Position numbers and translations under genes: made by a program. A stretch of DNA of 64,000 nt, taken from a virus. Lineage: Duplodnaviria > Caudoviricetes. The DNA is taken from positions 1 through 64,000 of the IMG/VR virus record IMGVR_UViG_3300010163_000014; one strand, given 5' to 3'. Within the stretch, counting starts at the first letter, position 1, and each line of letters starts with the position of its first letter. Under the pieces are notes generated by a model, which saw nothing but the letters and a program-made list of their open reading frames with translations, searched no databases and was not told the DNA's origin. Shown piece by piece: positions 1 through 60,409 of the stretch.

Positions 1-206
1 TTAAGTTAGCTAAAACTGAAAAATCTATCAATATTCTATTATGGAAATTCTTAGAGGATCATCATGTCCTTGAATCAGAGTCAGATATTAAATGCACCTT
101 AACTTATGAAAATGGTATCTTTAAAATCAATTTTGAAGGTGATTCTGATTTTATCTATACAATGAGACAATATTTAGAAGATAATAGGAGGCGATATGAT
201 GGATAA
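1..206 (+). CDS. Hypothetical protein, 5'-truncated by the window edge
   Basis: Open frame from position 3 (KLAKTEKSINILLWKF...) to TAA at 204-206; contains the AGGAGG RBS of the next gene. Confidence 0.6.
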   Translation, partial: KLAKTEKSINILLWKFLEDHHVLESESDIKCTLTYENGIFKINFEGDSDFIYTMRQYLEDNRRRYDG

Positions 207-504
207 TTCTGATTTAGAGAAATTACAAGCTGATTTACAAAAAGCTTGCAAAGAGCATACCTTTTCATTCACTAATCCGGATGATTTTTCTACTTATAAA
301 GAAACACTTGAAAGTGAATATATGAAATGGATTACCAAACATGCCGTAGAAAATGATATAAACCCAGACGGTTTAAAAGTTACAGCTTCACTAAAGGTTA
401 TAGCTTCAGATTGTGAAGATGTACCGTATAAACTTGGCATACACATTGAAGGTCCCAAGGAATTAATGGAGTTACTCAATGGGCTAAACACGGAGGAAGG
501 CTAA
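196..504 (+). CDS. Hypothetical protein (102 aa)
   Basis: ORF with AGGAGG RBS; its stop overlaps the next start (TAATG). Confidence 0.75.
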   Translation: MMDNSDLEKLQADLQKACKEHTFSFTNPDDFSTYKETLESEYMKWITKHAVENDINPDGLKVTASLKVIASDCEDVPYKLGIHIEGPKELMELLNGLNTEEG

Positions 505-2541
505 TGATTAATTTCATTGATAAGTTTCCAAATGAATATGTCCAAGATTTCAATGATGACATTATTTTGGGAACTCAGGATACTCCTATTGTTAATTTCA
601 TCATACAAGCCATGAAAGAGACAGAGGCAATTGAAAATGTCCGTATTGAGGGAATTGAAATCGTTCCTGATCAAGACGAGGTCGATATCAATAATCATAC
701 GGTCAATATTAATTTCAAGAAGAAGAATCTGGATTCTATCGAAATCCCCAGATTCAAATATATGGCGGAATCCAGATATGGAGAGGTTGTCTTCCGTATT
801 CGAATCACAACCAATCTCAATGAGAAGATGATCGTCAAGAGAATCCTGTATCCCATTGAGCATGAAGGGTTCTACTATAATAACGGCAAGAGGATGAAGG
901 CAATTTGGCAGATTGTCGATGCCTCTACTTATTCTCAGCGTGGTAAGTTGACTCTGAAGAGTCGTATGCCTACTATTATCTATCAGAATAAACATCGGGT
1001 ATTTGCAGATGTGGAGGGAGTAGAGCATGCAATGACCTCTTACTCCTATGCACTGAATACCAAGTCAAAGAGACCTGGTTCTAAGACAAATACTCGGTTT
1101 ATCAATCCCCTGATGATTTACTTTGCAAAATGTGGATATCAGACTACCAGAGATTTCTTTGGTATGAAAGGTATCGTAGAGATAGCTCCCGAGTATAGTG
1201 AATCTGAATTGGAAGATAAAATCATCTTCCAGGTGGATAATCTCTTTGTGAAAGCAAATCGAAAACTCTTTGATGAATATGAACTGGTGAGATCCTTTGT
1301 CTGTATGATGTGTAATCTGAGATCTAAACTCTTTCCGGTTCAAATCGAAGATATGGAGGACAAGGAATTCTGGATCTGCCGGATTGGTACAGTTGGTGCA
1401 GCCAGAAATAAGAATATCATGTCTTTCAAGGAAAAGGGAGTTACCACTATCTATATGATAGAACGACTCCTCGATCAGATTACCATTGAGAATCTTCGTA
1501 TTCCGATGTATTATAAACAGAATATCTATTTCCTCATCTATTGGATGATCACCAATTTTAATGATTTGAGACGATATTCCAATATTGATATGAGAAATAA
1601 ACGTATTCGTAGAAATGAGTATATCGTATGCTCTACACTGGGAAAGAAAATCAATGAAAATATCAATCGTATTATTGAGAAACGCGGTAAATCTAAGATG
1701 AACACCATGGATACTCTTCTGGAGATCTTTAACTTTAACTCTGATATCATCGTATCTGGTATGAGAAATCTCAATGATGTAATTAAGTCCGATGATATTG
1801 TAAATGACATGAACTTCATTATTGATCTTTCCAATTCTTCCAAAGGCCCTGAGTGTAAATTGGGGCTCTATGTGGTAACACATAGATGCACACTCTGTGA
1901 ATTGCTGGGATATCCCTTTGGGACAATCAGCAGCCAAGCCTCATACTTTGAGGAAGGTTCATCGACTATCGAAAGGGTAGCCTAGAAATAGGTGAGTAAC
2001 TGAGTAGAGTACCGCCAAGTGGTAGGTTTCTAACTGAGATTAGGTTAGGGTAATACCTTTAAAGGGAAGTGCAGAGTATCCTAGAAATAGGATAAAGATA
2101 TAGTCAGTCCCTATGGTAACATAGGCAGTCGAAAGACGGGATAGAATAACGATCTATCTGGAATAAACGAATTCTTTGGGAGAAGGCAACTCCAAGATGA
2201 TCGCAGTCAAATATCGGTATCTACATCCATCCATGGTTGGTATCATGGATCTCAATGTCTCTTCTAACTCTGATGTTGGTATGAGTGGATCCTTTGTACC
2301 ATATGCAAAGCTATATGACAGATATTACTTCACTCCTGAGCATGAACCCTGTCAAGGGAGATATCTATTTGATAAATCTCTTCATGATGAACATGGCTTT
2401 GATATTGGGGTAGATACAGTTGATTTTGATACCTATATTTATCAGTTAGAAGAAGCAAATCAATATCGTGAACCTTTACAATACGAGAAGATCGAAATTG
2501 TAGAAAAAGAAACGGAAGATCCCAAAAAAGCTACGAAGTAG
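504..2541 (+). CDS. Phage multisubunit RNA polymerase beta subunit, N-terminal part; spliced join(504..1850,2170..2541), 572 aa
   Basis: Removing 1851-2169 restores an in-frame ...SSKGP|NSLGEGNSKMIAVKYRYLHPSMVGIMDL...SDVGMSGSF..., matching the beta-subunit GPGGL...VRDVHPSHYGRIC region. Its size suits the non-virion RNAP beta-N subunit of phiKZ/AR9-like phages (inference). Confidence 0.85.
1851..2169 (+). mobile_element. Group I intron (319 nt, no homing endonuclease ORF)
   Basis: Exon 1 ends in U (CCT at 1848-1850) and the intron ends in G (2169). P1: exon GGCCCU pairs with intron GGGGCU, with a U-G wobble at the splice site. Core elements P (AATTGCTGGGA), Q (AATCAGCAG), R (GTTCATCGACTA) and S (AAGATATAGTC) occur in order. 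Confidence 0.92.
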
Positions 2542-2550
2542 GTGTCTGAT

Positions 2551-3534
2551 ATGTCTAAGATTAAGGCGATTGTCAATATTGAAGGTATCGATGGGGTAGG
2601 AAAAGAGACAGTTGCTTTGAAGCTAAGAGAAGCATTATATCCCAATGCTTATTATAGTACATTCCCTAATTATAGTACGGAATCTGGTAAAACTGTTCGT
2701 GATATGTTAAATGGAGTTTATGGCGATCCAACTAAAATTGATCCTAAACTAATGGGTATGCCCCTTACCATTGATCGTAGAATTGAGTATAATGCCATGG
2801 CCGATTACTTTGATAATCTATGTCCGCATCCAGAGAATATCTATTATATCTGCAATAGAAGTTGGCTGAGTAATCTCTTTTATCAAGGGACTAAGGTTTA
2901 TTTTAAACCTGTCTTTGATAGCATTCGCAAGGATTCTATTAATCAAGTTCATATCGTTCGTACGATGAAAGAAGCGTATGATTTGATTGAACAGATGAGA
3001 GGTGTAGTGATTGCTAAAGTAGCAATTGTGATACTACCTGCTACTTTCAGAGATGTCCCAATTGTCCTTGAAGGATATGGTAATCTTTCTCAATCTTTCA
3101 AGATGAAGAAACTAGATACCAAATTCCATAACAGTTCAAAAGAGCTTGATGACTATATTAATTGGCTTTATCAACGAGAGATTGTAGGCACTCCTATTGA
3201 GGGGAATAAATTCTACAATATTTATCTCACCAGACATGGGACTTTTGATAGTATTATCAAGACAATTACACAGAAGATTCATGAGACAAGAGACCATGCT
3301 GATCTCGTTGAATCCAATAATTCCTATTTGGGATTGGTTAATGCATTCTCTTATATGCTCATGTATGATCTGATTCCTAACCTTAATTGGATGGATACAA
3401 TTCCCGCTTTAGAAGATGGCTTTCATGTCAATTATCAGCAAACTGGAAGTACTCCTGAGGAAATCGATAAGATTTCTGACCGAACCGTTCAAGATATTCT
3501 CGAACTAATTGGAGCAAAACCCATTGGAGGCTAA
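2551..3534 (+). CDS. tmk: Thymidylate/dNMP kinase-like protein with a central insertion
   Basis: N-terminal P-loop IEGIDGVGKET, FPNY motif and CNRSWLSNLFYQG (dTMP-kinase DR/Y-Q-G motif); longer than the usual ~210 aa. Confidence 0.72.
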   Translation: MSKIKAIVNIEGIDGVGKETVALKLREALYPNAYYSTFPNYSTESGKTVRDMLNGVYGDPTKIDPKLMGMPLTIDRRIEYNAMADYFDNLCPHPENIYYICNRSWLSNLFYQGTKVYFKPVFDSIRKDSINQVHIVRTMKEAYDLIEQMRGVVIAKVAIVILPATFRDVPIVLEGYGNLSQSFKMKKLDTKFHNSSKELDDYINWLYQREIVGTPIEGNKFYNIYLTRHGTFDSIIKTITQKIHETRDHADLVESNNSYLGLVNAFSYMLMYDLIPNLNWMDTIPALEDGFHVNYQQTGSTPEEIDKISDRTVQDILELIGAKPIGG

Positions 3535-3539
3535 TTACC

Positions 3540-5546
3540 TTGACTATTGATTATTTTGGCGAACCTAGACTATCCGAAGAGGAACTTCATAAGAAGTATT
3601 TCAATCGGAAATTATGTCTAGTCATGGATGATGTCTTATCGTCGTCCAAAGTCTATCATGTGATCTTTCAAGAGCTTTTAGATATTCTAAAGTATGGGTT
3701 TGAAATCAAAGAGATTCGAACTCATCCTATCAAGTTTAAGTTTCATGCAGATGATAAGAAGAACTATACATTGGAGATTCGTCATCTGATTTCCAATCTG
3801 ATTATGTGGAAGATGTTTATGGACATCGATAAGGTAGAACTCTTAGATGAGAGCTATCTATTTGATGTGATTCATTTCTCTCCTCAGACTCTGAAAAAAT
3901 ATATTGATGAGAAACTATTACCCATCCACGATGGTGATTTTGCATCAAAGAATGCTATGGTTGATGATATCTGTCATGCCATTGTATGTATTTCTCATGC
4001 GTTCTGTCTATTGATGGGCATGTCTTTCTCTATGTATGATATCATGCAGACAGAGAAGAGACATCCTGAAGTTACCGAATTGATGAGAGGAGATGTCGAC
4101 CAATCTCTATCTCCGGATGAAATCGAACATGAACTCGATGAGAGAACGAAGAAGCTCACTCAGATTCTCATTGATGATGAATATAATAATGATCTGAAAC
4201 CTCTGTTGATTGGTAAGAATATCAAGCCCGCTCAGTTTAGGGAGTTTATCGTTAAGATCGGATTTAAGTCCGATATCAATGGTAATACAATCCCTGTCTT
4301 GATTAATTCTAATTTCTTGCTTGATGGGTTACCCAAACCCTCTAGTATCTATATCAATGCTCTGGGTGGTCGAAAGTCTCTTATCTTGACCAAAACCAAG
4401 ATGGGAGAACCCGGTGCATTCTCGAAGAAGCTTAGTAGTAATGCAACTACTCCTGGTATTCTGGGTACAGAAGAATGTTGCGATTCTGTTGGATACGTTC
4501 AATATCTTATTCATGATGATCTATTCCTGAAATTACTTGATGGTCGTACCTATTATGATCCATATGGTAATATGAAGATTCTCGATTATCAGAAAGATAA
4601 ACATTTGATTGGCAAGCTTGTTCCATTTAGGAGTCCTGCCACTTGTGCTGGGCATGATGGAATTTGTCAAGCTTGCTATGGGCATCTATTTGATATCAAT
4701 AAAGATCTATTCTCAGTTGGTACATTGGCGGCATTGAAAATCTCGGAGCCTGTTGGTCAGACAGTATTGTCTTCGAAACATCAACAGTCTACGAGTAGTT
4801 CTGCCATTAGTTTCTCTGAAGGATTCGATCAAACCTTTGAACTTACTTCTACTGAAATCACATTGAGATCTGATTCTGATGCGGACGCAGATATGTCCAT
4901 TCGACTTGGAGAGGTTTATACAGAAGAGATGGACGACTCTGAAGTCTATTATGTCACAGAGTTTGATCTCATTGATAATACAAGTGAAACGATCTTCCAT
5001 ATCAAAGAAGATCATGATGCTAAGATCTATCTGACCGATCAATTGATTACCACTTATAAGAGAATGAAAGATAAGTCTGCTCTGATTAGCTTGGAGGGTG
5101 TTGATGATGAGGAGTCCCTCTTCATTGTCGAGATTAAGAATAAAGAGCTGACTGAGCCGATCAAGATCTTCCAGAAACTCTTGAATCAAAATGATCATAT
5201 GGGTGCTCATACTCTGTCTGAACTATGCCAGAAGTTTGCAGAGAAGCTTATTGCTATGGGTACTCACTATGATCTCGTTCATGCTGAATGTATTATTCGG
5301 TCCCTTGTTCGTAGAAAGACCGATATTACAAGGTTCCCGGATTTCACTCCTGCTGGTAACCCGAATGATATTGATATTATCAAGTTGGACGATGCTCTAC
5401 TTTATAACCCCTCTCCTCTGGTATCAATGTCCTTTGGTTACCTCAAGAAACAACTTCTCGGTTCTGACCTGTATGAAAGGAATGGGATGTCTCATCTCGA
5501 TCCTCTGTGGATTCCTAGACTTAGTCAATATCTTACAGATCAGTAA
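3540..5546 (+). CDS. Phage multisubunit RNA polymerase beta' subunit, C-terminal part
   Basis: Bridge-helix-like GGRKSLILTKTKMGEPGAFSKKL, Zn site SPATC...GICQACYG and trigger-loop-like VGTLAALKISEPVGQTVLSSKH. Confidence 0.88.
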   Translation: MTIDYFGEPRLSEEELHKKYFNRKLCLVMDDVLSSSKVYHVIFQELLDILKYGFEIKEIRTHPIKFKFHADDKKNYTLEIRHLISNLIMWKMFMDIDKVELLDESYLFDVIHFSPQTLKKYIDEKLLPIHDGDFASKNAMVDDICHAIVCISHAFCLLMGMSFSMYDIMQTEKRHPEVTELMRGDVDQSLSPDEIEHELDERTKKLTQILIDDEYNNDLKPLLIGKNIKPAQFREFIVKIGFKSDINGNTIPVLINSNFLLDGLPKPSSIYINALGGRKSLILTKTKMGEPGAFSKKLSSNATTPGILGTEECCDSVGYVQYLIHDDLFLKLLDGRTYYDPYGNMKILDYQKDKHLIGKLVPFRSPATCAGHDGICQACYGHLFDINKDLFSVGTLAALKISEPVGQTVLSSKHQQSTSSSAISFSEGFDQTFELTSTEITLRSDSDADADMSIRLGEVYTEEMDDSEVYYVTEFDLIDNTSETIFHIKEDHDAKIYLTDQLITTYKRMKDKSALISLEGVDDEESLFIVEIKNKELTEPIKIFQKLLNQNDHMGAHTLSELCQKFAEKLIAMGTHYDLVHAECIIRSLVRRKTDITRFPDFTPAGNPNDIDIIKLDDALLYNPSPLVSMSFGYLKKQLLGSDLYERNGMSHLDPLWIPRLSQYLTDQ

Positions 5547-5569: not shown

Positions 5570-5725
5570 ATGATCTTGGGTCCAACCTGTGATAGATGTA
5601 ATATGAAATCTAGATGTTTACATTATCGATCTGGTAGAGAAACCTGCTACTATGAGTATAATAAGAAATTTAAACGTGAAAGTGAGAATTATCTCAATTA
5701 TAAAAAAGACGAAAAGAATAATTAG
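5570..5725 (+). CDS. Small Cys-rich protein (51 aa), absent from the ORF track
   Basis: GAGGAG RBS; MILGPTCDRCNMKSRCLHYRSGRETCYYEY...; TAG at 5723-5725. Confidence 0.65.
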   Translation: MILGPTCDRCNMKSRCLHYRSGRETCYYEYNKKFKRESENYLNYKKDEKNN

Positions 5726-5754: not shown

Positions 5755-6036
5755 ATGATTGAAAATAGTCTCGAGGGAACTGTCAGGTTGATGCTTAGTG
5801 AGGACGCTCTTGATCGTCTTCAGGCTGAATTCATGCAGGTTGATATTCGAATTGATATGCTCGAAGATTTTCTGCAGCGAGCTGAAAATGGAGAGCCGAT
5901 GATGTTTCCTGCTACTCCGTTTGATCTACTTCAGATGCAGCTTAAAGTAATGAAAGAATATAAAGCGATTTTATTGACTCGTCTAACCATGATGAATCTT
6001 ATTGATAAAGAGAAAAGAGTTGAGGGAGACAAATGA
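5755..6036 (+). CDS. Small helical hypothetical protein (crAss001 gp48-like pattern)
   Basis: AAGGAG RBS; L-x2-Q-x3-M-x2-Y-x2-IL-x2-R pattern (LLQMQLKVMKEYKAILLTR). Family recalled, not searched. Confidence 0.55.
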   Translation: MIENSLEGTVRLMLSEDALDRLQAEFMQVDIRIDMLEDFLQRAENGEPMMFPATPFDLLQMQLKVMKEYKAILLTRLTMMNLIDKEKRVEGDK

Positions 6037-10956: not shown

Positions 10957-13629
10957 ATGTGGAAGATTCTACGGCTCTATTTGAAGAATTTTGCTCAGAT
11001 CATGTCTGGATTAGATAAAAAAGAAATCACTCTAGACTTCTCAATCAATGATAAAGTGATCAATATCTTTATTGGTAAGATAGGTTCTGGTAAGACTGCA
11101 ATTCTTGGTCATCTCCAACCATTTGCAACCTATGGAACCCTAGATATCAGAAATCAAGATGATCCGATCATTCCCGGAGAAACTGGTAAAAAAGAGATTT
11201 CATTTCTCCATAATGATATCATATTTGATATTCAGCACGTCTACTCATGGAATAAACATACAGAATCCCATAATATCAAATCTTATATCCAGATGAATGG
11301 AGAAGAACTCAATCCAAATGGAAACACTGGATCCTTTAAAGAGCTGATCAAGATTCATTTTGGCCTTGATCAGAACTATCTGAGAGTTTTAAGACTTGGG
11401 CCCAATGTTGCAAATATCATTGAGATGAGAGCTGCAGAGAGAAAGAGTTTCATCGCATCTCTTAGACCAGATACTGATATCTATCTGATGCTTTATAAGC
11501 ATCTATCTGAAGATCTGAGGAAAGTGAATTCCGCTTTGGCAGTTCTATCCAAGAAATTGGTCAGTCTATCATCTGGACAAGAAGAGAAACTCAAGAGTGA
11601 GTTCGCAATGACAGTTGAAGATCACCGAGAAGTTAGTGCTGAGTATGAGACAGAGAAGACAGCATATTTCATGGATAAAGGCACTTTGTCTAGTATTCTT
11701 CAAAATAGATCTGTTGATGATCTCAAGACTGAGTATACTCACTCATTAGAAACTTTCCAATCATTAAGTAATCAATTAGAAGATCTTAAGAAATCGCAAG
11801 AGCGCATCAATACCTCTATGAGTCTTACTGATGTCATGAGAGAAATCGGTAAAGTTGAGATGACTCTTCAGCAGATCTCTGCACAGGCAACTCTTCTGGA
11901 AGAGGAGATGAAGAATACCAATTTGGAATTGGCAAAGTGGAAAGAGAGAAAAGCTATTTTAGGAGAGAAAGACCAAATGGCAGATCTCGCACAGACTATT
12001 GCCAATCTAGAGGCAAAGTATGAGGACTATAAGAGAAGAGTCTATGGTTTCCATAGTAATCAAAGTTATCGTAGTTTAGCGGCATTCATTGATTCTCTTC
12101 CCATTACAATCATGACGATAGATTCAGTTGCTGGATATCCAACTGATGTAATCTCTCTCTTATATCATTCTGATCATTCTATCCTTAATAAAGCAAGAAT
12201 AGATATTGATCGGCTCAATGGTAGAGTATATAATCTGCAGAGGCAGATGACAAACATTGCATATTCCGCTAAGTATAGAGCTCCATATCCTCTCGTTCGT
12301 CCTCCGTTCTGTCCAACGGTAGAGTGCCCATTCATTCAATCTCATCCTGCTATTATTAGAGAAAAGATGGATGAGATTTCTGATGATAATCCTCTGAGAA
12401 AACTTCAAGATGAAATCGACCGGGTCAACGGCACAATTGCCAGATTAGAAGAATATCCAGTTATCTATCAAAAGATTCAATCATTAAAGAAATCTTGGCC
12501 AGAGATCAGAGATATTATCTCGGGATTCGGAGCTCTTAAGACGGAGAGTCTATATAGCATTTTGACAAATAGTCAGTATCGAATGAATTGGTATGACCAT
12601 GAGAAATTGACAGATGCATTGGAAAAGTGTAAGATACAGGAAGAACTCTATAATCTAGAGCATCAAGTGAAAAGCGCAAAGCAAGAACTGGAAGCCCTAG
12701 AAACAGAATTTGGAGGTAATATTGATGACAAGATCGCAGAAGCAGAGGTACGGCATATTCGACAGAGGTCAGAGTTACAAAGGCTCTCGGAGGAGAAAGC
12801 GAGGCAAAGCGATTTACTGCAGAGCCTACAAGCCGATGCAAGAGCCCTTGAACATTCTACAGAGATTTGCCAAGTTCTTGGAGACACCTCTCGGCAAATC
12901 GAAGAATTACAAAAGGTAATTCGATCTCTTCAAGAGAATATCCAAAAGAGCAACGAGCTCTGTGAGAGTATCAAAAGACGGCAAGAAAAGCTAACTTCCT
13001 ATGAGGATAAACTCAAGAAGTTAGCTGATAAAGGAGAAGAGCTCAGAAGTCAATTAAACGACATCAAGTTTACAAAGATTGAGTTCCAAGCTGTAACAGA
13101 AGCAAAAGATGAATTAAGTATGATACTTGATGCAACCTCTACCAAAGAAGGGATCCCTCTGATACTAGTCGAGGTATTCCTGGAAGATTGTAGAGAGATC
13201 TTAAATGAATTGATCGAAGATGTGTTCTCTGATTCCTTAGAGATCTTACCATCTGATGCTAATGATTTGGAACTCAAGATTCCTTATTCAATCAATGGAT
13301 TCCGAATTGAGGATATCCGAATGGCATCTCAAGGTCAGAGAGCAATTATCTCGATTGCATTGTCATTTGCATTGATTCGACAGAGTGTGTTTGATTATAA
13401 TATCATGCTCTTGGACGAGGTGGATGGTGCACTTTATAAGAGAGATAGAGAAAAATTCATCAATATATTATTCAAACAGTTACAGGCTATTGGAGCGAAT
13501 CAAGTCTTTCTTATTACGCACAATAGTACCTTTGACAATTCCCCCGCGAATATTATTATGACAACAGAGGAGATGATAGATCCTTCACCGAATCATACAA
13601 TCATGCGGCTATACGAATCTGCAGCGTAA
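10957..13629 (+). CDS. sbcC: SbcC/Rad50-like SMC-family ATPase
   Basis: Walker A GKIGSGKT, long coiled coils with central CPTVEC (Zn-hook-like), signature ASQGQR, Walker B LLDEVDG, H-loop LITHN. Confidence 0.9.
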   Translation: MWKILRLYLKNFAQIMSGLDKKEITLDFSINDKVINIFIGKIGSGKTAILGHLQPFATYGTLDIRNQDDPIIPGETGKKEISFLHNDIIFDIQHVYSWNKHTESHNIKSYIQMNGEELNPNGNTGSFKELIKIHFGLDQNYLRVLRLGPNVANIIEMRAAERKSFIASLRPDTDIYLMLYKHLSEDLRKVNSALAVLSKKLVSLSSGQEEKLKSEFAMTVEDHREVSAEYETEKTAYFMDKGTLSSILQNRSVDDLKTEYTHSLETFQSLSNQLEDLKKSQERINTSMSLTDVMREIGKVEMTLQQISAQATLLEEEMKNTNLELAKWKERKAILGEKDQMADLAQTIANLEAKYEDYKRRVYGFHSNQSYRSLAAFIDSLPITIMTIDSVAGYPTDVISLLYHSDHSILNKARIDIDRLNGRVYNLQRQMTNIAYSAKYRAPYPLVRPPFCPTVECPFIQSHPAIIREKMDEISDDNPLRKLQDEIDRVNGTIARLEEYPVIYQKIQSLKKSWPEIRDIISGFGALKTESLYSILTNSQYRMNWYDHEKLTDALEKCKIQEELYNLEHQVKSAKQELEALETEFGGNIDDKIAEAEVRHIRQRSELQRLSEEKARQSDLLQSLQADARALEHSTEICQVLGDTSRQIEELQKVIRSLQENIQKSNELCESIKRRQEKLTSYEDKLKKLADKGEELRSQLNDIKFTKIEFQAVTEAKDELSMILDATSTKEGIPLILVEVFLEDCREILNELIEDVFSDSLEILPSDANDLELKIPYSINGFRIEDIRMASQGQRAIISIALSFALIRQSVFDYNIMLLDEVDGALYKRDREKFINILFKQLQAIGANQVFLITHNSTFDNSPANIIMTTEEMIDPSPNHTIMRLYESAA

Positions 13630-13630
13630 T

Positions 13631-15185
13631 GGTAGAGCATGGAATAGTTTTGTTTGGTACTGTAATAGTAAGGCAACGCATAGTACAGCAAAGGCATTGT
13701 AATGCAACGTACAGTATAGTTCTGCAAAGGTACTGTATGGTTCAGTAATGTACGGGTATGGTAAAGTATTGTGATGGCAAAGCAAAGTATAGTGCCGTAA
13801 AGTCTGGTAAAGGCAATGCATAGCTTGGTAGCGCAATGTAGTGCAGTAGTGAAGTAACGTATCGTGCAGTTTGGGTAAGGTATTGTAATGTGCAGTACGG
13901 TATAGGTAATGCACGGTAACGTACCGTACAGTAATGGCAAGGTAGTGTACAGCTTGGTAAAGGTAAGGTAGAGTGTGGTATTGTCCTGTAATGGTAGTGT
14001 ATGGCAAGGAAATGTATAGGTATAGTAGTGCAGTGTAATGTATTGGCGTGGTAATGTGAAGTCAAGCAATGCAGAGGTATTGTGAGGTGTTGTAAAGTAA
14101 CGCTAAGTTTTGGTGAAGTATGGTGCGGTATGGTGTCGTAGCGGTAGGGTAATGTGAAGCTATGTGAAGTAATAGCATTGTGTAGTGTAGTGATGGTATG
14201 GTAATGTACAGTTCTGTTTGGGTATGGTATTGTGCAGCAGAGTTTGGCGAAGCAATAGCGATGCAGTATATAGCACAGTATAGGCGATGTGTGGTTTTGT
14301 GATGTAACGTAGAGTATTGGTGATGTACAGTAATGTGAAGCAATGGTACAGTGATGTACGGTGACGTATCGTAATGGCGGGGCATTGTTAGGCAGAGCTT
14401 TGTAAAGGTATTGCATGGTATATTATGGTTTGGTATTGTAATGCATTTCTCTATAAAGCTATGGTAAGGCTGGGTGTTGTAAAGTAATGTATCGGTAAAG
14501 TGATGTACAGTGGAGTATTGTATCGGTATAGTGTAGTTCTGTGAAGTAATGGTTTGGCTAGGTATGGTTAGGTAATGCGTAGTAACGGTAAAGCAAAGTA
14601 GTGTTCTTCTGCGTATTGTTTAGCAATAGTGATGTGAAGTGAGGTTTAGTTCCGTATCGTAACGGTGTAGTTTTGTGTAGCGACGTATAGTGCTGGTGTA
14701 GTTTTGTGCAGTCTAGCATCGGTAATGTATTGTATCGAGTTGTGATGCAATGGTATTGCATAGTTCCGTGGCGTAGAGTAGTGCAACGTATAGGTACAGT
14801 AACGTCAAGTGTGGTATTGTAATGCAAAAGTGCAGCTATGTTGAGTAAAGTAATGGTGTGGTATAGCAATGCTATGTGTAGTAACGTAAAAGTAAAGTCT
14901 TGCGATGCAGTGTAACAGTGATGTGTGGTCCAGTCCAGTAATGTTTTGTGATGTAACGGTTATGCGAAGTTACGCGATGTTGAGTATAGGCTATGTGTTG
15001 TAAAGTAGTATAATGTGAGGTATTGGTAAAGTGAAGTTTTGTAACGCATCAGTAAAGTGAAGTGCCGTGCTGCAAGGGTATGGTAGAGTGTGGTGCTGTT
15101 TTGTATTATAGAAGATACAAAGATGTAAGCTTCGTCGAAGTTTTGCAATGGCAATGATAAGTACAGTACGGTAACAGCGAAGCTA
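13631..15185 (+). repeat. Array 1: non-coding 5-nt-periodic (GY+NNN)n array of roughly 48 punctuated units; candidate guide-RNA array
   Basis: Parses as ggt-ag agc-at gga-at agt-tt tgt-tt ggt-ac tgt-aa|t agt-aa ggc-aa...; GY recurs every 5 nt, with a +1 base mostly every 4-8 pentamers; variable positions mostly do not repeat. Confidence 0.9.
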
Positions 15186-15188
15186 GTG

Positions 15189-15245
15189 ATATATCGGTGA
15201 AAAATGAAAAGTTGAACTCATTTTTCACCGATATATTATTTTTTT
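15189..15245 (+). terminator. 19-bp perfect inverted repeat plus T tract closing array 1, overlapping an early-promoter motif
   Basis: ATATATCGGTGAAAAATGA (15189-15207) / TCATTTTTCACCGATATAT (15218-15236), then TATTTTTTT; GATATATTATT at 15230-15240. Confidence 0.75.
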
Positions 15246-15329
15246 GAGCAAAATGAAATATTTTGCTTTCCAGCGCGCCTCTGGATAAACAAAAGGCAAG
15301 ATAAAATTTATAAAAGGAGTGTATCACAA

Positions 15330-16238
15330 ATGGCAAGACCGAAGAAGAACACCGAGGTACAGGAAGATCAGGTCATGATGGAACAGACCCCCGAGGCCAC
15401 TCCGGCTCCCACCAAGCGCAAGTATACCCGTCGCAAGACTGCGGATACTACCGCCACGGCCAGCCCGGTTGAGAACGAGGTCGAGACCGAGGATGAAGAG
15501 GTTGCCGCCGCGCCGAAGCGCATTGGCATCGTCGATCCTGGCCGGATCTATGTCCGGTTGTTCTACTTTGAGCCGATCCTGGGCACCTGGCCCGCTGATC
15601 CGGAGATCGCCCGCCGCTTCATCATGAGCAAAGCGCCTGGGGCTGCCACACTGGAGGATGAGATCGCGTCCATGGGCCCCGATGCGGTCGTAGAGCGCGC
15701 ACTGACCATCTTTAATCGCATGGGCGACGGTACCCCGCATCACTGGGACTTTCAGCTTCGGGGCTTTCTGAAGGCTGCGTGGGCTGCCAACAAGAAACGT
15801 CCTGGCTCCATCGCGTCGACGATCAAGGGCGGCAAGAAATTGGTCGATACCGAGATCTTCGCTTATCCCCGTAAGATTGCCCTGCACTTCGACGGCGAGC
15901 TTACTTACTGTGAGAGGCCGTTGCGTGCCTCCACCCCGAAGGGCGAGCGCGTCAATCTGTCCAACTCCGAGCAGGCTCCGGATGGGACCTGGTCCGATGT
16001 CATGTTCGAGTGCCTGGTACCCTCCGATGTGAAGTTCGTTCGGGAGTGCCTGAACTATGGGCGCTACGCCGGCATGGGTCAGTGGAGGAATTCCGGCAAA
16101 GGTCGGTTCTACTGGGAGGAGCACGCCGGTGGCTTCGATGGGCCGGTGATCGGCGGCAACTTCAAGGAATTCTACCCGGGCGGGTACGAGGAGTTCAAGG
16201 CCATGCACCCGGCTTTCAACTGGTCTGATAAGGGTTAA
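15330..16238 (+). CDS. Stand-alone Cas7-like RAMP protein (Vipr-like candidate effector), 302 aa
   Basis: RAMP-like beta1 IYVRLFYFEPILGT, helix motif WDFQLRGFLKAAW, thumb-like ERPLRASTPKGERVNLSNSE, C-terminal Gly-rich loop YGRYAGMGQWRNSGKGRF; AAGGAG RBS; flanked by the two arrays. Confidence 0.8.
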   Translation: MARPKKNTEVQEDQVMMEQTPEATPAPTKRKYTRRKTADTTATASPVENEVETEDEEVAAAPKRIGIVDPGRIYVRLFYFEPILGTWPADPEIARRFIMSKAPGAATLEDEIASMGPDAVVERALTIFNRMGDGTPHHWDFQLRGFLKAAWAANKKRPGSIASTIKGGKKLVDTEIFAYPRKIALHFDGELTYCERPLRASTPKGERVNLSNSEQAPDGTWSDVMFECLVPSDVKFVRECLNYGRYAGMGQWRNSGKGRFYWEEHAGGFDGPVIGGNFKEFYPGGYEEFKAMHPAFNWSDKG

Positions 16239-16250
16239 GGCCAAATAAAG

Positions 16251-16308
16251 AAGGTGGAGAGTTTATGAAAATCTACTGGTTTCATAAACTCTCCACCTTT
16301 TCTTTTTG
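16251..16308. terminator. 20-bp hairpin terminator after the RAMP gene
   Basis: AAGGTGGAGAGTTTATGAAA (16251-16270) / TTTCATAAACTCTCCACCTT (16280-16299) followed by TTCTTTTT. Confidence 0.8.
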
Positions 16309-17378
16309 TATAGCAACAGTGAAGTTCTGCGTTGCTTGGTATCGCAACGGTATAGCGTGGTGGCGTGTTGTATTGCGAAAGCATAGTTGAGTTTAGTATC
16401 GTAATGTGACGTATTTGCGAGGTGCAGTTTTGCGTGGTAGCGCACTGTATAGGCAAGGTAAAGTTAGGCTCAGTAATGTATAGGTAAGGTATAGTGAAGC
16501 AATGTGAAGTTTTGGCGAAGTTTAGTTCCGTATTGCATAGAGATGGTAAAGCAGAGTGAGGTAGCGTAATGTTAAGTAATGGTGAAGTGACGTGTAGTGA
16601 CGTTGTGGTATGGCGAGGTATTGTGATGTGCAGTATCGTAGAGGTAGGGTTCAGTTCGGTAGAGCTATGCGGTGTAATGGTTAAGTGCAGTTCAGCAGGG
16701 TCCGGTAAAGGCATCGTATGGTTCCGTGATGTACGGGTATGGTAAAGTATTGTATTGGTAAAGTGTAGCGCTGTACTGTAAGGGCAAAGCATAGTTCGGT
16801 GCAGTGACGTGTTGCATTAGCAAAGTATCGTTTGGTTCAGCACGGTATTAGTAATGCACGGTAAAGTAGCGCTTAGTATGGGTAAGGTAACGCTGTACTG
16901 TGTAATGGTAGAGCGTAGTTCAGTGATGTAGAGCATAGCAAAGGTAAAGTGCAGTAGCGCGGGGTACAGCTACGGTGAAGTAATGCGTTGTGGTGTAACG
17001 CAAAAGTGCGGTGTGGCTCGGTCGCGTGATGTAAAGGCGTAGTAATGTACAGTGTTGCAGAGGTACGGTGTAGCTAAGTTCAGTGACGTAATAGTAGGGT
17101 AGAGTGTAGTTAAGTACGGTATCAGTAATGTAATATATCGTTTGAGTGTAGTAACGTGATGTAGCGGTAATAGCCTAGTTAAGTTCAGCAATGTAATGGT
17201 ACAGTGTGGTTAAGTGAGGTCTCGCTAAGTAAAGGTGATGCTTAGTGAAGTACCGTATAGTATTGGCATAGTGTTGCTTTGCAACGTGAAGGCGGGGTAG
17301 TGTTAAGTTGAGCGATGCGATGGTTATGCGAAGTATAGTTGAGCATTGGCAAGGTGCAGTAATGCCAAGTGTAGGCAA
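16307..17378 (+). repeat. Array 2: non-coding 5-nt-periodic (GY+NNN)n array of roughly 35 punctuated units; candidate guide-RNA array
   Basis: Same grammar and strand as array 1, e.g. agt-ga agt-tc tgc-gt tgc-tt ggt-at cgc-aa|c ggt-at agc-gt... Confidence 0.9.
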
Positions 17379-17381
17379 ATT

Positions 17382-17504
17382 GACGATTTCACCGTATCAA
17401 CTTAAATATCAGCAATATATTATTTCTATGAGCAGAGATAACCAATAAGTGTTTCCTGCGATATTTTAATGGGCAATATTAGCCCAGAAAGGAAGATCAT
17501 TATG
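17382..17504 (+). promoter_or_regulatory. Promoter plus structured 5' leader, copy A (paralog of 22407-22529)
   Basis: Ungapped 123-nt alignment to the reverse complement of 22407-22529 (102/123 identical by eye); contains AATATATTATT, two hairpins, an RBS and the ATG. Confidence 0.85.
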
Positions 17505-18155
17505 TTCGGTATGTTCGGTAAAAACAAGACTATTCCCCAGGTGCAGATCGACTTCCGTGCCATCGCCCAGATCAAGGGCTATAATCCTGACCCCGCCAAC
17601 GGCCGCGCCTATGTGTTCGTGGTTGAAAAGCTGCAAGCCGAGAAGGTCCTTGGTCTTAACAAGGACCTGGCCATCAGGGTGGCCATCGCCAGCGCTGAGC
17701 TGGATGACGCGCAGGCTATTAGAACTTTTGGCCGTACGGTTGTCCTGATCGACAAGGACACCGCCAAGTTGGCCAAGTGGCCGTGGAGCCGCACTGAAGT
17801 TCTGGCCATGATCGCCGCCGAGAATGCGGTAATCTTCGACCAGCATGAGTGGTCTTCCGTTCCCAACACGGAGGGCTTCGACATCGAGTGGATGCCGCAG
17901 CGTGCCGCGCAGCTTCTGGATGGTGGCGTGCCCTATGGTTGGGGCGCCGCGAGGAAAGGTGCCAACCGGCAGAACAAGGTTCTGGATAAGAGCCTGAAGC
18001 CCATTGTTAAAGGTCTGCACAAGAACTACAAGAAGGGCGTTCAGGCTGCCAGCAGAGGCGACATTCCCGAGCCCGTGGCTGATCCTTTCCAGAATGCCAG
18101 CGACACCGACATCATCGAGGAGGTCATCGAGGTTGAGCCCGACGCCGCCGGATGA
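17502..18155 (+). CDS. Hypothetical protein (217 aa), GC-rich, directly downstream of array 2
   Basis: GAAAGGAAG RBS, ATG at 17502; followed by a terminator at about 18161-18203. Confidence 0.8.
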   Translation: MFGMFGKNKTIPQVQIDFRAIAQIKGYNPDPANGRAYVFVVEKLQAEKVLGLNKDLAIRVAIASAELDDAQAIRTFGRTVVLIDKDTAKLAKWPWSRTEVLAMIAAENAVIFDQHEWSSVPNTEGFDIEWMPQRAAQLLDGGVPYGWGAARKGANRQNKVLDKSLKPIVKGLHKNYKKGVQAASRGDIPEPVADPFQNASDTDIIEEVIEVEPDAAG

Positions 18156-19420: not shown

Positions 19421-21277
19421 ATGAAAATATTACCAGAGGATAAATATTACAATGATATTATCCCAATTAATGTCATCTATAATAGAGGAAAGAATATTGC
19501 GGATGATGATATCTGCATTGTATATAAAGATTTGGTGACAGGTGAGAAAAAAGTCCATATTGAGAAGAGACCGATGATTGAGGTTTATATTGTAAAGCCT
19601 GAATATCGGAACTACACTCATGTACGAAACTTCATGGATATTGATCACTGTTATCCTCTCAAAGTGCATTATGCATCTCGATTTGCAGAGATTGCAAAAG
19701 AGATGCACCTACCAAGTGCTGAAGATGCAAAGGAGAATCCATATGTCTTTGGCGCAGATGTTACAATCGAGCAGTATTATCTAACTCAATTTGAATATGA
19801 GTATCATACCGATGCTCCGAAAGATCTATCATTGGGATACTTCGATATCGAGAATGATACGATCAACCTGGATCGATTCCCAATGTATGGTGAAACTCCT
19901 ATCAATGCTGTGACCTATATTGATGCTGAGAGTTCGAATGTATTTGTCTTTGTATTGACAAAGAATAATATGATACCACTTCCGATTGTCCATGTGAAGT
20001 ATCAATGGTTTAAAGAATTATCTGACCGATTTGATCGACAAATGGAATGGCTATTATCTCATCAAAAAGAATTCATTGAAATATGTCACAATACATTTGA
20101 TGAGAACTATCCTGGAATGGAATATAATCTTCTTACATTTGATGAGGAGATCGATCTTATTAAAGCATTCTGGGAAATTGTCAGAGCATGTGACAATGAT
20201 TATATTGGAGTATGGAACCTCCCATACGATATGCAAAATATGATGGATCGTCCGGCTAAGCTCGGATATGATGTTAATACGATCATTCCCGACCCCCGAT
20301 TTGGAGAGAATCGAGAGGTCTACTTCAAAGAGGATGACAATCCTGTTGTCCATAAGAAGAAGCATGTCTGTGTAACATATACGATGCCATGCTTTACAGA
20401 TGATATGATCAATTATGCAGGTATTCGAGCAGGTGGTCCAAAACTGGCAAGTAATAAGTTGAATTTCTGTGCTAGAAAAGAGCTAAAAGATGAAAAATTA
20501 GATTACTCAGAGGCTGCGAGTATTCGTACCTTCCCATATGAAGATCTAATAAAATTCATTCTATATAATATCAAAGACGTTCTCCTGCTGGTTGGAATCG
20601 GTCAGAAGACAAAAGATATGAATACAATCTATTCCAGATTGTATTCATCTATGGTGTTACCGAAGGATTCTTTCACAACCACTCTTGTGGTATGGGGAGC
20701 TCTTAAAAGCTTTATCCTGAAAGAAGGATATACCTTTGGTGCAAATAAGAATAAGTTCAAATCAACTCAAGGATTGGGCAATATCAAATATGGTGAGATT
20801 GTAACTCAGTTTGATGATGATGATCCTGGAGATATCAATCTAGAAGATTATTATGGAGATTCGGATTCAGAAGATGATGAGCAATACGACGGGGCATTTG
20901 TCATGAATACTCTTCATCAAATGCCAACTGGGTATCGTATTTTGGGAGAACCTGCAAAATATGTTCATCGGTGGGTTGGTGATGAAGATATCACATCAGA
21001 GTATCCATCTGCAATGGTTGTGTGGAATATCTCAAATGAGACAATGGTTGGTAAGGTATTCCTAGAGAACCCCGATGATTTTGATATCCCGGTCTATGGC
21101 AGTTTCAACTTCCGTGGGGATGATCTTGCTGACTATAAGGTTGATGTATCCAACTTCATGATGGAATGTTATTCAGAACGTGATATCTATACGTTCTCTA
21201 ATATATTCTTGAAGTTACCAACTCCGGATAAAGTTCTAGCAGCTCTATCCGATGATATTGATGATTTGGAGGAGTAA
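19421..21277 (+). CDS. Family B DNA polymerase, N-terminal subunit (3'-5' exonuclease plus motif A) of a split enzyme
   Basis: ExoI GYFDIEND, ExoII WNLPYD, ExoIII YNIKDV, YDGAFV and motif A DEDITSEYPS; the protein ends before motifs B/C. Confidence 0.85.
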   Translation: MKILPEDKYYNDIIPINVIYNRGKNIADDDICIVYKDLVTGEKKVHIEKRPMIEVYIVKPEYRNYTHVRNFMDIDHCYPLKVHYASRFAEIAKEMHLPSAEDAKENPYVFGADVTIEQYYLTQFEYEYHTDAPKDLSLGYFDIENDTINLDRFPMYGETPINAVTYIDAESSNVFVFVLTKNNMIPLPIVHVKYQWFKELSDRFDRQMEWLLSHQKEFIEICHNTFDENYPGMEYNLLTFDEEIDLIKAFWEIVRACDNDYIGVWNLPYDMQNMMDRPAKLGYDVNTIIPDPRFGENREVYFKEDDNPVVHKKKHVCVTYTMPCFTDDMINYAGIRAGGPKLASNKLNFCARKELKDEKLDYSEAASIRTFPYEDLIKFILYNIKDVLLLVGIGQKTKDMNTIYSRLYSSMVLPKDSFTTTLVVWGALKSFILKEGYTFGANKNKFKSTQGLGNIKYGEIVTQFDDDDPGDINLEDYYGDSDSEDDEQYDGAFVMNTLHQMPTGYRILGEPAKYVHRWVGDEDITSEYPSAMVVWNISNETMVGKVFLENPDDFDIPVYGSFNFRGDDLADYKVDVSNFMMECYSERDIYTFSNIFLKLPTPDKVLAALSDDIDDLEE

Positions 21278-26339: not shown

Positions 26340-26392
26340 ACAAACATGTTACAATACAGATATATTATTTTATTAAGAAAGGAGAATGGTAG

Positions 26393-38017: not shown

Positions 38018-38237
38018 TTAACATCCCTCCTTTCCAAGGACATAATAACTCAGCTCAACTTCCACTGAAATAATATATCTATCAAACATACATTTAGGAA
38101 CTCCAGTGAGGAAAAGTGGAGCGCGCATACTTGGCGGGGTGCGTAGAGAGGGAGCCTCACTTGAGAGAATATAAATATCTTGGTATAACTGGCCAAGAGA
38201 AAAAGAGAGATTGGTGAAAAACACCAATCTCTCTTTT

Positions 38238-56910: not shown

Positions 56911-59400
56911 GTGTGTTTCATTTTGCCTGCAGAAATCTATCACGGTAGTAGTTTTCCTGCAAAGATGCCTAAACATGAAAAGAAACAAGATACCACACAG
57001 TATCTTGTAACTCAGGATAGGCAAGACAAGTTCTCTGATGATGTATACATGACAATGGCGAATCAAATTGAAGAGATTCGATCTTCTATTTCCATGTATG
57101 TATCTCCTTTGGGAACTCAGGGTGGTCTTCATCTCTGCAAAGAGATTATCAATAATGCCATTGATGAGGCTATGAATGCAGAGAGTAAGATCAACACCCG
57201 AAAGATCTATGTGACCTTTAATGAGGGAACCAGGCAGTTCACTATTACAGATGAAGGCCGAGGGATTCCTCTAGACTTTTTGAAAGATACCGTATGCAAG
57301 AAGCATATGGGAACCAAAACGATTGGTAAAGCCAATCGAAATAAAGACCTAGCCGGCATGAATGGCGTGGGTTTGACTGTTATTGCCGCTCTGTCTGACT
57401 ATATGTCTATCACTTCCTATCGTGGATTTAAGGCTAAAACGCTTGAATTCCATGATGGTGTTTTGAGTGAGGGCAAGGTTCAGACTTTAAAGAAAGAGAG
57501 ATATGGATTATCTGTATCCTCTATTCCATCTGAGAAATATCTCGGTCCGATGGATCTGACCAGAGATATCGTCGAGGATTATTTCAGACATATGTCTTAT
57601 ATCCTCCGAGGAGACATCTCTATCTATTATGAGGGATCTCTCGGAGATGATAAACATAAAATCCTTTATAAGAGAAGTGGTCTGAAGACCAATGTTGAAT
57701 ATTTATCCTCTTCTTTGGAGTTTGCTCCGGTTGAGGTAGAATGTGAGAATGAAGACTTCGGTCTAGAAGTTGCATTCAGTTATGATCGTTCTTTAGATGA
57801 GATGATTTGTGATTCCTATGCAAACTATATCATCACCACAGAAGGCGGAACTCATGAGCAAGTTGCTCAGAGAGCCATTTGTGAGTTCTTGAGTCGGGAA
57901 GCAAAGAAGCTAGATCCGACCAATAAGATTGAGATCAGCTATGACGATTGCCGGAAGGGGCTTGTCATGGCGGTCAATTGTCGTCATGTGAAACCGATTC
58001 TGGAAGGTCAGCACAAATCTAAACTGTCCAGTCAAGATGTCTTGAAAAGTGGACGGTATATGATTCAAAAAGTGCTGACTGCGTACTTCCATGAAAATCC
58101 TGGTCTATTGAGAAAGATCATTGGTTACCTCCGAAATGTAGCAAAAGCCCGTTTGGAGAGTAATAAGATCAAAGGTGTAAGCACCAGTCATAAGCCAATG
58201 TCACTCTTACAGGATGCAGAGATCAAAGGTTTCTTTAATATCTCCGACCGTTATTGGAAGGGATATAAAGAACTATATATATGTGAGGGCGATTCCGCTG
58301 CAGGTGCTCTGGAGAATTGTCGAAATAAGAAGTATCAGGCTCTATATGGAGTCATGGGTGTCACAGATAATATCTATGATATGTCTCTATCCCAACTGAT
58401 GAATGCCCCAACCTTTAGAAATCTTGTGACGATTCTTGGTTGTGGTATTGGAAAGGACTTCGATCTCAATAAGCTGAGATATAATAAGATTATCATCTGT
58501 GCTGACTCAGATTCTGATGGACGATATATCACCAGTTTGATTATGTGCTTCTTCCTGATCTTTATGCCAGAGGTTATTGAGGCTGGTAGACTGTTTAAAG
58601 CTATGCCCCCTCTGTATTTGCTGAAGAAAGATGGGAAGTTTAAGTATTATAAAGGCAGAGAGTTCTTGTATGATAAGCGTGAGCTGTATCAGATCGAGAA
58701 TACTGCCATTGCCAACAATGTCGAGTTTGCTCTTGATGGAGATAATAAGAATATCAAGAGAGGTTTGACAAAGAAGGAAGCTATTGACTGGTTGAATATG
58801 AATGCCGAGTATATGCTCGAGTTGAATAATCTGGCCGCTCGTTCTAGCTGTGGTCCTACCGTGGTCGAATACGCTGCATATTTCAAGCTGGTATGTGGTA
58901 AGGATGAGCAGAGGTTTAAGATGATGATTGAACGGCAATTCCCCGAGATGACCTATGATATTCAGACACAGTCTTTGTCTGGATCTTGGGATTTGAAGGA
59001 ATTCAGTCTGATTTGTGATAAACTCTTTATGAGATCTGCTGAACGGTATATGGCTCTCTTGGTTAAGAACCCGAGCCTATTCGTATATGTCAAGAATAAG
59101 AATGATGACTCTGATTACTATGATAAGATGACTATTGGTCAATTCCTTGGGTCCATGGGTGCCCAATATAGTCTTGGAATTGAGCAGAGGTTTAAAGGAT
59201 TAGGTGAGGCAGATGCATATCTGCTCTTTATGACCACCATGAATCCGAAAACTCGCAAACTTCTCCGTATCACAATGCCGGATAAGAAGAAAGCGGAAGA
59301 GGTCTTCCAGCTTCTACACCAGAAATCTGAAAAGATGATTGAGGCAAGACGAGATCTGTTAGATAATACCACGATCTCTTATGCAGATATCGATAACTAA
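56911..59400 (+). CDS. gyrB: Type IIA topoisomerase B subunit (GyrB/ParE-like); start codon uncertain
   Basis: GHKL motifs EIINNAIDE, DEGRGIP, AGMNGVG; TOPRIM ICEGDSA, ADSDSDG; QRFKGLGE. Confidence 0.92.
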   Translation: MCFILPAEIYHGSSFPAKMPKHEKKQDTTQYLVTQDRQDKFSDDVYMTMANQIEEIRSSISMYVSPLGTQGGLHLCKEIINNAIDEAMNAESKINTRKIYVTFNEGTRQFTITDEGRGIPLDFLKDTVCKKHMGTKTIGKANRNKDLAGMNGVGLTVIAALSDYMSITSYRGFKAKTLEFHDGVLSEGKVQTLKKERYGLSVSSIPSEKYLGPMDLTRDIVEDYFRHMSYILRGDISIYYEGSLGDDKHKILYKRSGLKTNVEYLSSSLEFAPVEVECENEDFGLEVAFSYDRSLDEMICDSYANYIITTEGGTHEQVAQRAICEFLSREAKKLDPTNKIEISYDDCRKGLVMAVNCRHVKPILEGQHKSKLSSQDVLKSGRYMIQKVLTAYFHENPGLLRKIIGYLRNVAKARLESNKIKGVSTSHKPMSLLQDAEIKGFFNISDRYWKGYKELYICEGDSAAGALENCRNKKYQALYGVMGVTDNIYDMSLSQLMNAPTFRNLVTILGCGIGKDFDLNKLRYNKIIICADSDSDGRYITSLIMCFFLIFMPEVIEAGRLFKAMPPLYLLKKDGKFKYYKGREFLYDKRELYQIENTAIANNVEFALDGDNKNIKRGLTKKEAIDWLNMNAEYMLELNNLAARSSCGPTVVEYAAYFKLVCGKDEQRFKMMIERQFPEMTYDIQTQSLSGSWDLKEFSLICDKLFMRSAERYMALLVKNPSLFVYVKNKNDDSDYYDKMTIGQFLGSMGAQYSLGIEQRFKGLGEADAYLLFMTTMNPKTRKLLRITMPDKKKAEEVFQLLHQKSEKMIEARRDLLDNTTISYADIDN

Positions 59401-59414
59401 AAGGAGAATCTATC

Positions 59415-60404: not shown

Positions 60405-60409
60405 CTGTA

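Follow-up and report, generated by a model that had tools for sequence, protein, structure and literature searches.

What could be the role of a stand-alone Cas7-like gene lying, in a phage genome, between two long arrays that repeat every 5 nt? This question is raised by a locus in the 64,000-nt stretch analysed here (the window), which is the first 64 kb of the 90,236-bp IMG/VR virus record IMGVR_UViG_3300010163_000014. An initial annotation of this DNA had pointed to a resemblance to VIPR (Viral Interference Programmable Repeat) systems, and this agrees with 2026 preprints, both in the RAMP fold of the protein and in the presence of same-strand arrays on either side of its gene. Our results point to a VIPR system of an uncultured jumbo phage, RNA-guided and with the arrays as guides, a reading to which we give a probability of roughly 85%. 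This reading is based on the RAMP fold and its G-loop, the array grammar, the CRISPR-free phage context, the pairing of gene and arrays in five other loci, the transcription signals and the lack of self-targeting. The kind of system is already published, including, in outline, the repeat variant and the array architecture. The locus adds its scale (80 guides), a precise grammar (GYD-NN repeats, a semi-constant last pentamer and +1 punctuation), an apparent loss of the residues that bind the first constant G, and a hint of a code in which each pentamer may follow the target with three of its bases.

VIPR is a CRISPR-related, RNA-guided DNA silencing system, first described in 2026 preprints (bioRxiv 10.64898/2026.04.26.720920). 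The published systems have a lone ancestral RAMP protein (Vipr), often with one accessory gene and without any CRISPR array, and are mostly phage-borne. Their vrRNA genes flank vipr and are built of GGY/NN pentamers. The Vipr filament has one protomer per pentamer, GGY being hidden and NN presented; on double-stranded DNA two bases are paired and one is skipped, and transcription is silenced. The family was collected by PSI-BLAST from X1U2U4 and comprises types I to VII, with 667 representatives (bioRxiv 10.64898/2026.04.26.720920). The discovery preprint also lists the alternative repeats NNNGG, YNNNG and NNNNG and, in its fig. S18 legend and type-classification methods, describes staggered arrays, in which the next vrRNA starts where the previous one stops, with a 1-nt offset (bioRxiv 10.64898/2026.04.26.720920). 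The concept is only months old, and the published mechanism comes so far wholly from type II, with its long tailed guides.

Both arrays of the window were resolved with a register-tracking parse and a greedy tokeniser. Their sizes, first put at 1.55 and 1.07 kb, are close to the limits found, 1.47 kb (plus a degenerate tail) and 1.06 kb. The reported recurrence of GY every 5 nt is confirmed by autocorrelation of base identity, which reaches 0.49 in the left and 0.44 in the right array at lag 5, against some 0.2 at the lags next to it; no peak is seen in the gene or in a control stretch, where lag 5 gives 0.25–0.26. The 473 in-register pentamers have G at position 1 in 98% and a pyrimidine at position 2 in 99% of cases (T 76%, C 23%). 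Position 3 is depleted in C (A 54%, G 26%, T 17%, C 3%), giving GYD-NN, and positions 4 and 5 are near-random, with about 0.1–0.2 bit. A further layer, beyond the initial account, is the punctuation of the arrays by a single additional base (G 63, A 16, T 1, C 0), which closes each run of 4–8 pentamers and divides the arrays into units of 5n+1 nt. The estimate of about 80 guides is matched by the 80 clean units counted, with n = 4, 5, 6, 7 and 8 in 5, 24, 28, 20 and 3 units, respectively. All 80 are distinct in sequence, and their final pentamer is semi-constant, GYAWN, with A at position 3 in 81%. Apart from one irregular 10-nt insert and some short fragments at the ends of the arrays, this grammar has no exceptions. 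No further period-5 array is found elsewhere in the 90-kb record.

Constant-G pentamers alternating with hypervariable bases are thus present on both sides of the gene and on its strand, as in published VIPR repeats, and the units abut without tails or ribozymes, with a 1-nt offset from each unit to the next. As GYNNN is YNNNG read circularly and the units are of 5n+1 nt, the locus fits the published staggered description. A search of Rfam, hammerhead included, found neither ribozymes nor members of any other family; its only matches were spurious ones, to the hairpins of the terminators. The earlier proposal of a distinct subtype holds only in part. The discovery preprint already lists both the relaxed GY motif (as YNNNG) and staggered arrays without tails; small-RNA confirmation is given in its text for ribozyme-interspersed and single-vrRNA architectures only, the staggered one not being included (bioRxiv 10.64898/2026.04.26.720920). 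Like the published staggered or YNNNG systems, the window locus has a lone, minimal phage RAMP gene, pentamer arrays beside it on its strand and a constant part cut to G-Y; it differs from them in having two arrays with 80 units in all, a C-depleted third base and the GYAWN last pentamer.

Could these arrays nevertheless be decaying, decoy or sponge repeats, or minus-strand coding sequence, instead of guide libraries? Minus-strand open reading frames (ORFs) of 224 and 185 aa do run across them, and satellite-encoded solo vrRNAs serving as decoys have been published. However, a 5-nt period with +1 slips cannot hold a reading frame, and these open frames are therefore most simply a by-product of composition. 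Furthermore, G and Y are kept at 98–99% while the rest is near-random and no two units are the same, which is typical of selection acting on a protein-binding scaffold that carries variable cargo. The cognate gene also lies between the arrays, a pairing that recurs in the five other loci, and a non-guide origin is thus considered very improbable. The minus-strand frames (13742–14416, 13593–14069 and 16235–16792; up to 224 aa) are probably artefacts of the skewed array composition, which gene callers may annotate as proteins.

The arrays also keep traces of their growth. Positions 13709–13782 of the left array and 16690–16763 of the right one are 80% identical over 74 nt, the sole clear paralogous segment shared by the two arrays, and a jumbo-phage relative (L001, see below) carries three near-copies of a 21-nt unit in tandem (5651–5713). 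Array growth would thus seem to proceed through duplication with subsequent point divergence, and not through Cas1-type acquisition. Their GC content is 41–45%, and such AT-rich arrays appear to be locally generated.

The GC-rich 302-aa ORF noted at the outset between the arrays exists, and its three RAMP motifs are conserved in its family, which comprises 5,533 clusters at 90% identity and 1,427 at 50% identity. In an AlphaFold2 model based on 44 members of the family, the core is confident, with a predicted local distance difference test (pLDDT) score above 90 for 146 residues; the model also contains two floppy loops and a disordered N-terminal part of about 65 residues. When this model is compared to known structures with Foldseek, each of the best 50 matches listed is a subunit or complex of a CRISPR RAMP effector, with E-values down to 3e-6; they include type VII Cas7, Csm3, Cas7-11 and type IV-A, and the closest solved structures are those of Csm3 and type VII Cas7. 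As modelled, the Vipr of the window thus has a Cas7-type RAMP fold, as had been predicted. The ORF has no match in Pfam, PHROGs or PDB sequences. The charged N-terminal extension is present in jumbo-phage Viprs and absent from most of the family members of about 197 aa.

To which extent can this protein be related to the characterised type II Vipr of SUSP1? We located the SUSP1 gene in KT454805 (28474–29061, minus strand); the numbering of its product agrees with all residues named in the cryo-electron microscopy paper except at position 175, which is V in the record and T in the paper. The G-loop GMGQWRNSGKGRF aligns to GVGDWRPRFGRF of SUSP1 Vipr in a profile-profile comparison (hhalign, E 0.0015, probability 17%); the full-length alignment of the two is co-linear and statistically weak, and tblastn makes no connection between the two families. 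In the SUSP1 structure, a tryptophan and an arginine hold G2 and Y3 of the repeat, and D177 and H17 hold G1 (bioRxiv 10.64898/2026.04.26.720927). The former two, W178 and R179, correspond to W252 and R253 of the window protein, which are invariant in its family. At the G1 contacts, D177 is replaced by Q251, also invariant, and H17 by T86, the latter in the weak full-length alignment only. Such replacements would be in keeping with a repeat that has lost one of its constant Gs: on the alignment, the loss of G1-binding residues would accompany that of the base itself.

At the level of the whole locus, the SUSP1 system has the same small RAMP with a G-loop of the form G-x-G-[DQ]-W-R...G-[RK]-F, likewise has vrRNA genes on either side of vipr and is followed by a small accessory gene, of which the window has a candidate; its one protomer per 5-nt repeat is proposed, by analogy, for the window locus as well. 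Differences are nevertheless marked. SUSP1 has 4 vrRNAs, each with 9–16 GGY-NN repeats and a pseudoknotted tail of about 40 nt, whereas the window has its 80 units of 4–8 GYD-NN repeats, without any tail. The window Vipr carries in addition the 65-aa disordered extension and the T/Q pair in place of H17/D177, and the accessory candidate appears unrelated in sequence to the SUSP1 accessory gene, vap1.

A class 1 CRISPR-Cas system would have a repeat-spacer array and an effector module made of Cas5, Cas7 and a large subunit, in most cases together with Cas6 and an adaptation module. The absence of cas genes and of a canonical CRISPR array, already remarked upon for the window, extends to the 90-kb record, i.e., to the approximately 36% of the genome available: there are no matches to Cas1, Cas2 or Pfam RAMP profiles and no CRISPR-like tandem repeat array. 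The part shared with class 1 Cas7 proteins (Csm3 of type III-A, type VII Cas7) is only the fold. Other cas genes, a repeat-spacer array and a Cas6-type processing signal are lacking in the window, and its period is 5 nt with a guide interleaved with constant bases, as opposed to 6 nt with a contiguous guide.

The expectation that homologues would adjoin arrays of like grammar is borne out: the five homologous loci sampled (L001, L003 and L005–L007) all have adjoining 5n+1 arrays. Two of them belong to syntenic jumbo-phage relatives. The first, L001, is a 286.7-kb contig whose Vipr is 66% identical and whose vipr gene is flanked by arrays on either side, and the second, L003, has a 54% identical Vipr and a small upstream array only. 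Compared to the window, the arrays of both have an identical grammar, unrelated sequences and different lengths. The three others (L005–L007) are human-faecal phage contigs with Viprs of about 50% identity, in whose arrays pentamer position 2 is less constrained. The vipr gene and array of L005 lie between two small ORFs, 3172–3552 (minus strand) and 4881–5252 (plus strand), which by eye look helix-turn-helix-like; if they encode such regulators, the region would resemble a lysis-lysogeny switch.

Several signals fit transcription of the arrays from the plus strand. A sigma-70-like promoter candidate lies ahead of the left array; with 11/12 matches it is the best site in the region, by consensus match only. 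The terminators after the left array and after vipr fold at -27.2 and -35.2 kcal/mol (z -8.5 for both; for the former, none of 200 shuffles folds as well), and the order gene, hairpin, array is also found in L001. The units themselves are unstructured in the samples folded (z +0.4 and +1.0 versus shuffled), and these hairpins with their U runs, together with unstructured units, are what plus-strand transcription would fit. Upstream of vipr, the 11-nt motif ATATATTATTT is conserved in L001 and L003. It has 4 copies in the window, versus 0.2 expected, each shortly 5' of an ORF start (vipr, the 228-aa accessory candidate described below and two other genes); it is probably a phage promoter class, possibly served by the phage's own RNA polymerase. 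Finally, the hairpin in the 5' untranslated region (5'-UTR) of vipr hardly varies among the three jumbo phages, and in L001 one C:G pair has become T:A, a compensatory change. By its folding energy alone this hairpin does not reach significance (z -0.7); it could be an autoregulatory or processing site.

From these elements a mechanism can be proposed, in which transcription, processing and the function of the additional base are inferred for this locus, and a DNA target and a silencing outcome are taken by analogy from the published type II systems. Both arrays would be transcribed from the plus strand into long precursors, along which one Vipr protomer would bind per pentamer, holding the constant bases G and Y, probably together with the C-depleted third one, and displaying the variable bases. 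After 4–8 pentamers, the additional base would shift the next unit out of register and the filament would end, as recognition would require G-Y at a strict 5-nt spacing. The precursors would thereby be divided into about 80 short ribonucleoproteins, each separate from the others, with no use of the 40-nt tails or ribozymes found in other VIPR types. Each filament would then bind DNA, 5 guide bases spanning 3 target bases, and block transcription, presumably that of competing phages, or of satellites or prophages that share the host.

What do the guides target? Eleven decoding rules were tried, in which positions 3–4, 4–5 or 3–5 are read and 0–3 bases are skipped. Self-regulation is rejected, as the best guide matches in the phage's own 90 kb are no better than those of shuffled guides under all eleven rules; published VIPR guides, as described in the discovery preprint, are also without self-targeting (bioRxiv 10.64898/2026.04.26.720920). 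Cross-targeting is rejected likewise: the guides of L001 and L003 against the window record, and those of the window against the L001, L003 and L005–L007 pieces, match at chance level. The preprint text gives no targeting rule for YNNNG repeats (bioRxiv 10.64898/2026.04.26.720920). A rule of three contiguous read bases was followed through exact-pattern scans of viral, metagenome and genome collections. With this rule, the first seven pentamers of unit 14753–14793 give a 21-mer with one exact match in the viral collection, on contig L009 (2221–2241, minus strand). Its sole metagenome match is a contig with the same sequence, and the 596 billion bases of prokaryotic (bacterial and archaeal) genomes scanned do not contain it. 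The match is of 23/24 bases once the last triplet is added, and it is in codon register and antisense within a 297-aa ORF, at residues ..VTSAGYN.. The C-depleted guide position 3 faces the wobble base there, which is the place of the skipped target base in SUSP1 (bioRxiv 10.64898/2026.04.26.720927).

This match has to be weighed against the other long guides. Unit 14918 decodes to a 21-mer that is absent from the viral, metagenome and genome contigs scanned, and neither the 27-mer nor the 21-mer taken from L001 occurs in viral contigs, so that one of the four decoded guides of at least 21 nt has an exact match. The 18-mers of three 7-pentamer units have 0, 2 (with identical sequence around the match) and 1 matches, none of which extends to the next triplet; this corresponds to chance level, and about 0.01–0.03 chance matches are therefore expected per 21-mer. 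One match out of four gives p ~0.05–0.1, before the reading-frame coincidence is considered, and is thus suggestive and not significant. Convergence of several guides on the candidate target contig (L009/L013) is rejected, since one guide matches and the rest are at background. The variable triplets do not behave as codons either: by hand count, the stop frequency is about that of the position-wise composition, and 5 units have stops in both orientations. A variant of the code, tentative as it is suggested by the single data point of unit 14753–14793, may be used in this clade: each target triplet would be tracked by the three non-GY bases of one pentamer, with 5 guide bases for 3 target bases and none skipped, in guides of 12–21 read bases bounded by the additional base in place of a structured tail. 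If true, about 80 such guides would make this the largest kind of VIPR repertoire.

The same searches bear on two alternatives that leave the locus RNA-guided. The guides could, with an unchanged machinery, be aimed at the bacterial host chromosome, for takeover or for the shut-off of defence genes. Eighty guides far exceed the 4 of SUSP1, and a jumbo phage with its own RNA polymerase could afford to silence host genes. Two decoded 21-mers nevertheless lack any exact match in the 596 billion bases of bacterial and archaeal genomes, the sole match is on a viral contig, and, for VIPRs carried by phages, the natural targets published are satellites and prophages; a host target therefore seems unlikely. 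Alternatively, the complex could target RNA, such as the mRNA of a rival, in the manner of type III and VII Cas7 filaments. Csm3 and type VII Cas7, the nearest solved folds, bind target RNA, the single candidate guide is antisense to an ORF and would thus pair with its mRNA, and published Vipr filaments can pair with single-stranded RNA too. On the other hand, complete filaments require a DNA third strand (bioRxiv 10.64898/2026.04.26.720927), the characterised systems silence via either DNA strand, one antisense match is a 50:50 event, and no nuclease motif or partner is found. We thus give an RNA target little credence, and a VIPR system that silences DNA of competing elements remains the preferred reading.

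Some of our results weigh against this interpretation. By sequence, the protein is connected only weakly to the characterised type II Vipr, through the G-loop and at the 17% probability given above, so that VIPR membership rests on fold, motif and locus grammar. The accessory candidate has no recognisable DNA-binding or nuclease fold, in a low-confidence model, and the right array lies right behind a strong terminator without a recognisable promoter of its own. Reading two bases per pentamer would give only 8–16 bp per unit, which finds chance matches even within 90 kb, and the published two-base rule may thus not apply unchanged. Finally, the target search gave one suggestive match and nothing more.

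Nonetheless, the locus shows the tail-less staggered architecture in a clean, natural form and at very large size. It bears on how guide boundaries are set without a tail or a ribozyme, on how many bases are read per pentamer once a constant G is lost, and on how a repertoire grows, duplication followed by divergence being visible. Once the code is known, the arrays could be read as a record of the competitors of a gut or rumen-type jumbo phage.

As for the genomic setting, CheckV estimates the record to be 36% complete, so that, with 90,236 bp in hand, a full phage genome of roughly 250 kb is indicated. Genes of the window include those for a beta-like subunit of a multisubunit RNA polymerase, a two-subunit topoisomerase II and a helicase, and the content in RNA polymerase and topoisomerase II is consistent with a jumbo phage. 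The locus lies between an SbcC-like gene and a family-B DNA polymerase (PolB) gene, in the order array, 302-aa ORF, array and 228-aa ORF, all on the plus strand; megablast of the locus against GenBank phages gives no match. Features are collected in Table 1.

Table 1. Coordinates of the locus, its signals and neighbours, with comparison features in relatives and in the contig of the candidate target (window positions unless a contig is named; GC3, GC content at third codon positions).
Feature	Position	Strand	Remarks
RNA-polymerase beta-like and topoisomerase II genes	3540–5546, 56911–63320		
SbcC-like ATPase gene	10957–13629		5' neighbour of the locus
Sigma-70-like promoter candidate	13532–13559	+	TTGACA-16-TATTAT; in 3' end of SbcC-like gene, ~70 nt before left array
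Left staggered vrRNA array	13632–15102	+	1.47 kb, ~47 units (GYDNN)n plus 1 nt
Irregular 10-nt insert in left array	14448–14457	+	
Degenerate tail of left array	to ~15185	+	
Intrinsic terminator after left array	15186–15245	+	22-bp hairpin and U run; overlaps vipr promoter motif
Promoter-like site upstream of vipr	15212–15241	+	TTGAAC-16-TATTAT, with motif ATATATTATTT
ATATATTATTT copies	15231–15241, 17415–17425, 26360–26370; 38068–38078	+, +, +; -	
5'-UTR hairpin of vipr	15270–15286	+	CCAG-CGYGCCT-CTGG; L001 ~5936–5955, L003 ~5945–5962
vipr	15330–16238	+	302 aa, 60% GC; GC3 0.76 (neighbours 0.34–0.36)
Disordered, charged N-terminal extension of Vipr	15330–15524	+	residues ~1–65; basic patches RPKK, KRKYTRRK
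RAMP core of Vipr	residues ~67–268		G-loop GMGQWRNSGKGRF at 248–260
Strong hairpin terminator directly after vipr	16249–16311	+	right array immediately behind
Right staggered vrRNA array	16319–17374	+	1.06 kb, ~36 units (GYDNN)n plus 1 nt
Candidate vipr-accessory gene	17469–18155	+	228-aa ORF downstream of right array; GC3 0.73
PolB gene	19421–21277		3' neighbour of the locus
vipr of L003	L003 6001–6846		GC3 0.75 (neighbours 0.36)
Gene after vipr in L003	L003 7000–7605		GC3 0.72
vipr of L001	L001 6001–6762		GC3 0.51 (neighbours 0.20–0.26)
Gene after vipr in L001	L001 7275–7922		GC3 0.58
Candidate-target ORF	L009 (IMGVR_UViG_3300025070_000233) 1570–2463	+	297 aa; no Pfam or PHROG match
ORF after candidate target	L009 2611–3312	+	233 aa; phrog_11717, a PHROG of unknown function

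The 228-aa ORF downstream of the right array is a candidate accessory gene. Its true start is likely the ATG at 17502 or 17511, which would give a conserved MFGKNK N-terminus. The gene follows vipr in all three jumbo phages, being syntenic and 42–59% identical in L001 and L003. Among 5.8 billion proteins, only itself and three homologues, of about 215–228 aa, are found at E <= 0.001, and one of these maps to a 281-kb contig. The protein has no match in Pfam or PHROGs, and none of use in ESM Atlas or by Foldseek (AlphaFold2 pLDDT 52, low confidence).

Both vipr and the gene that follows it form GC3-rich islands (0.51–0.76) in the three AT-rich jumbo phages, whose Viprs are 54–66% identical, and the vipr gene of the gut phage L005 has a GC3 of 0.72 within a stretch of 52% GC. 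The simplest reading of this composition is that both genes would have been transferred from a higher-GC phage lineage into a jumbo-phage ancestor, followed by slow amelioration. Selection for GC-rich wobble positions, e.g., against the guides of rivals, is a possible alternative.

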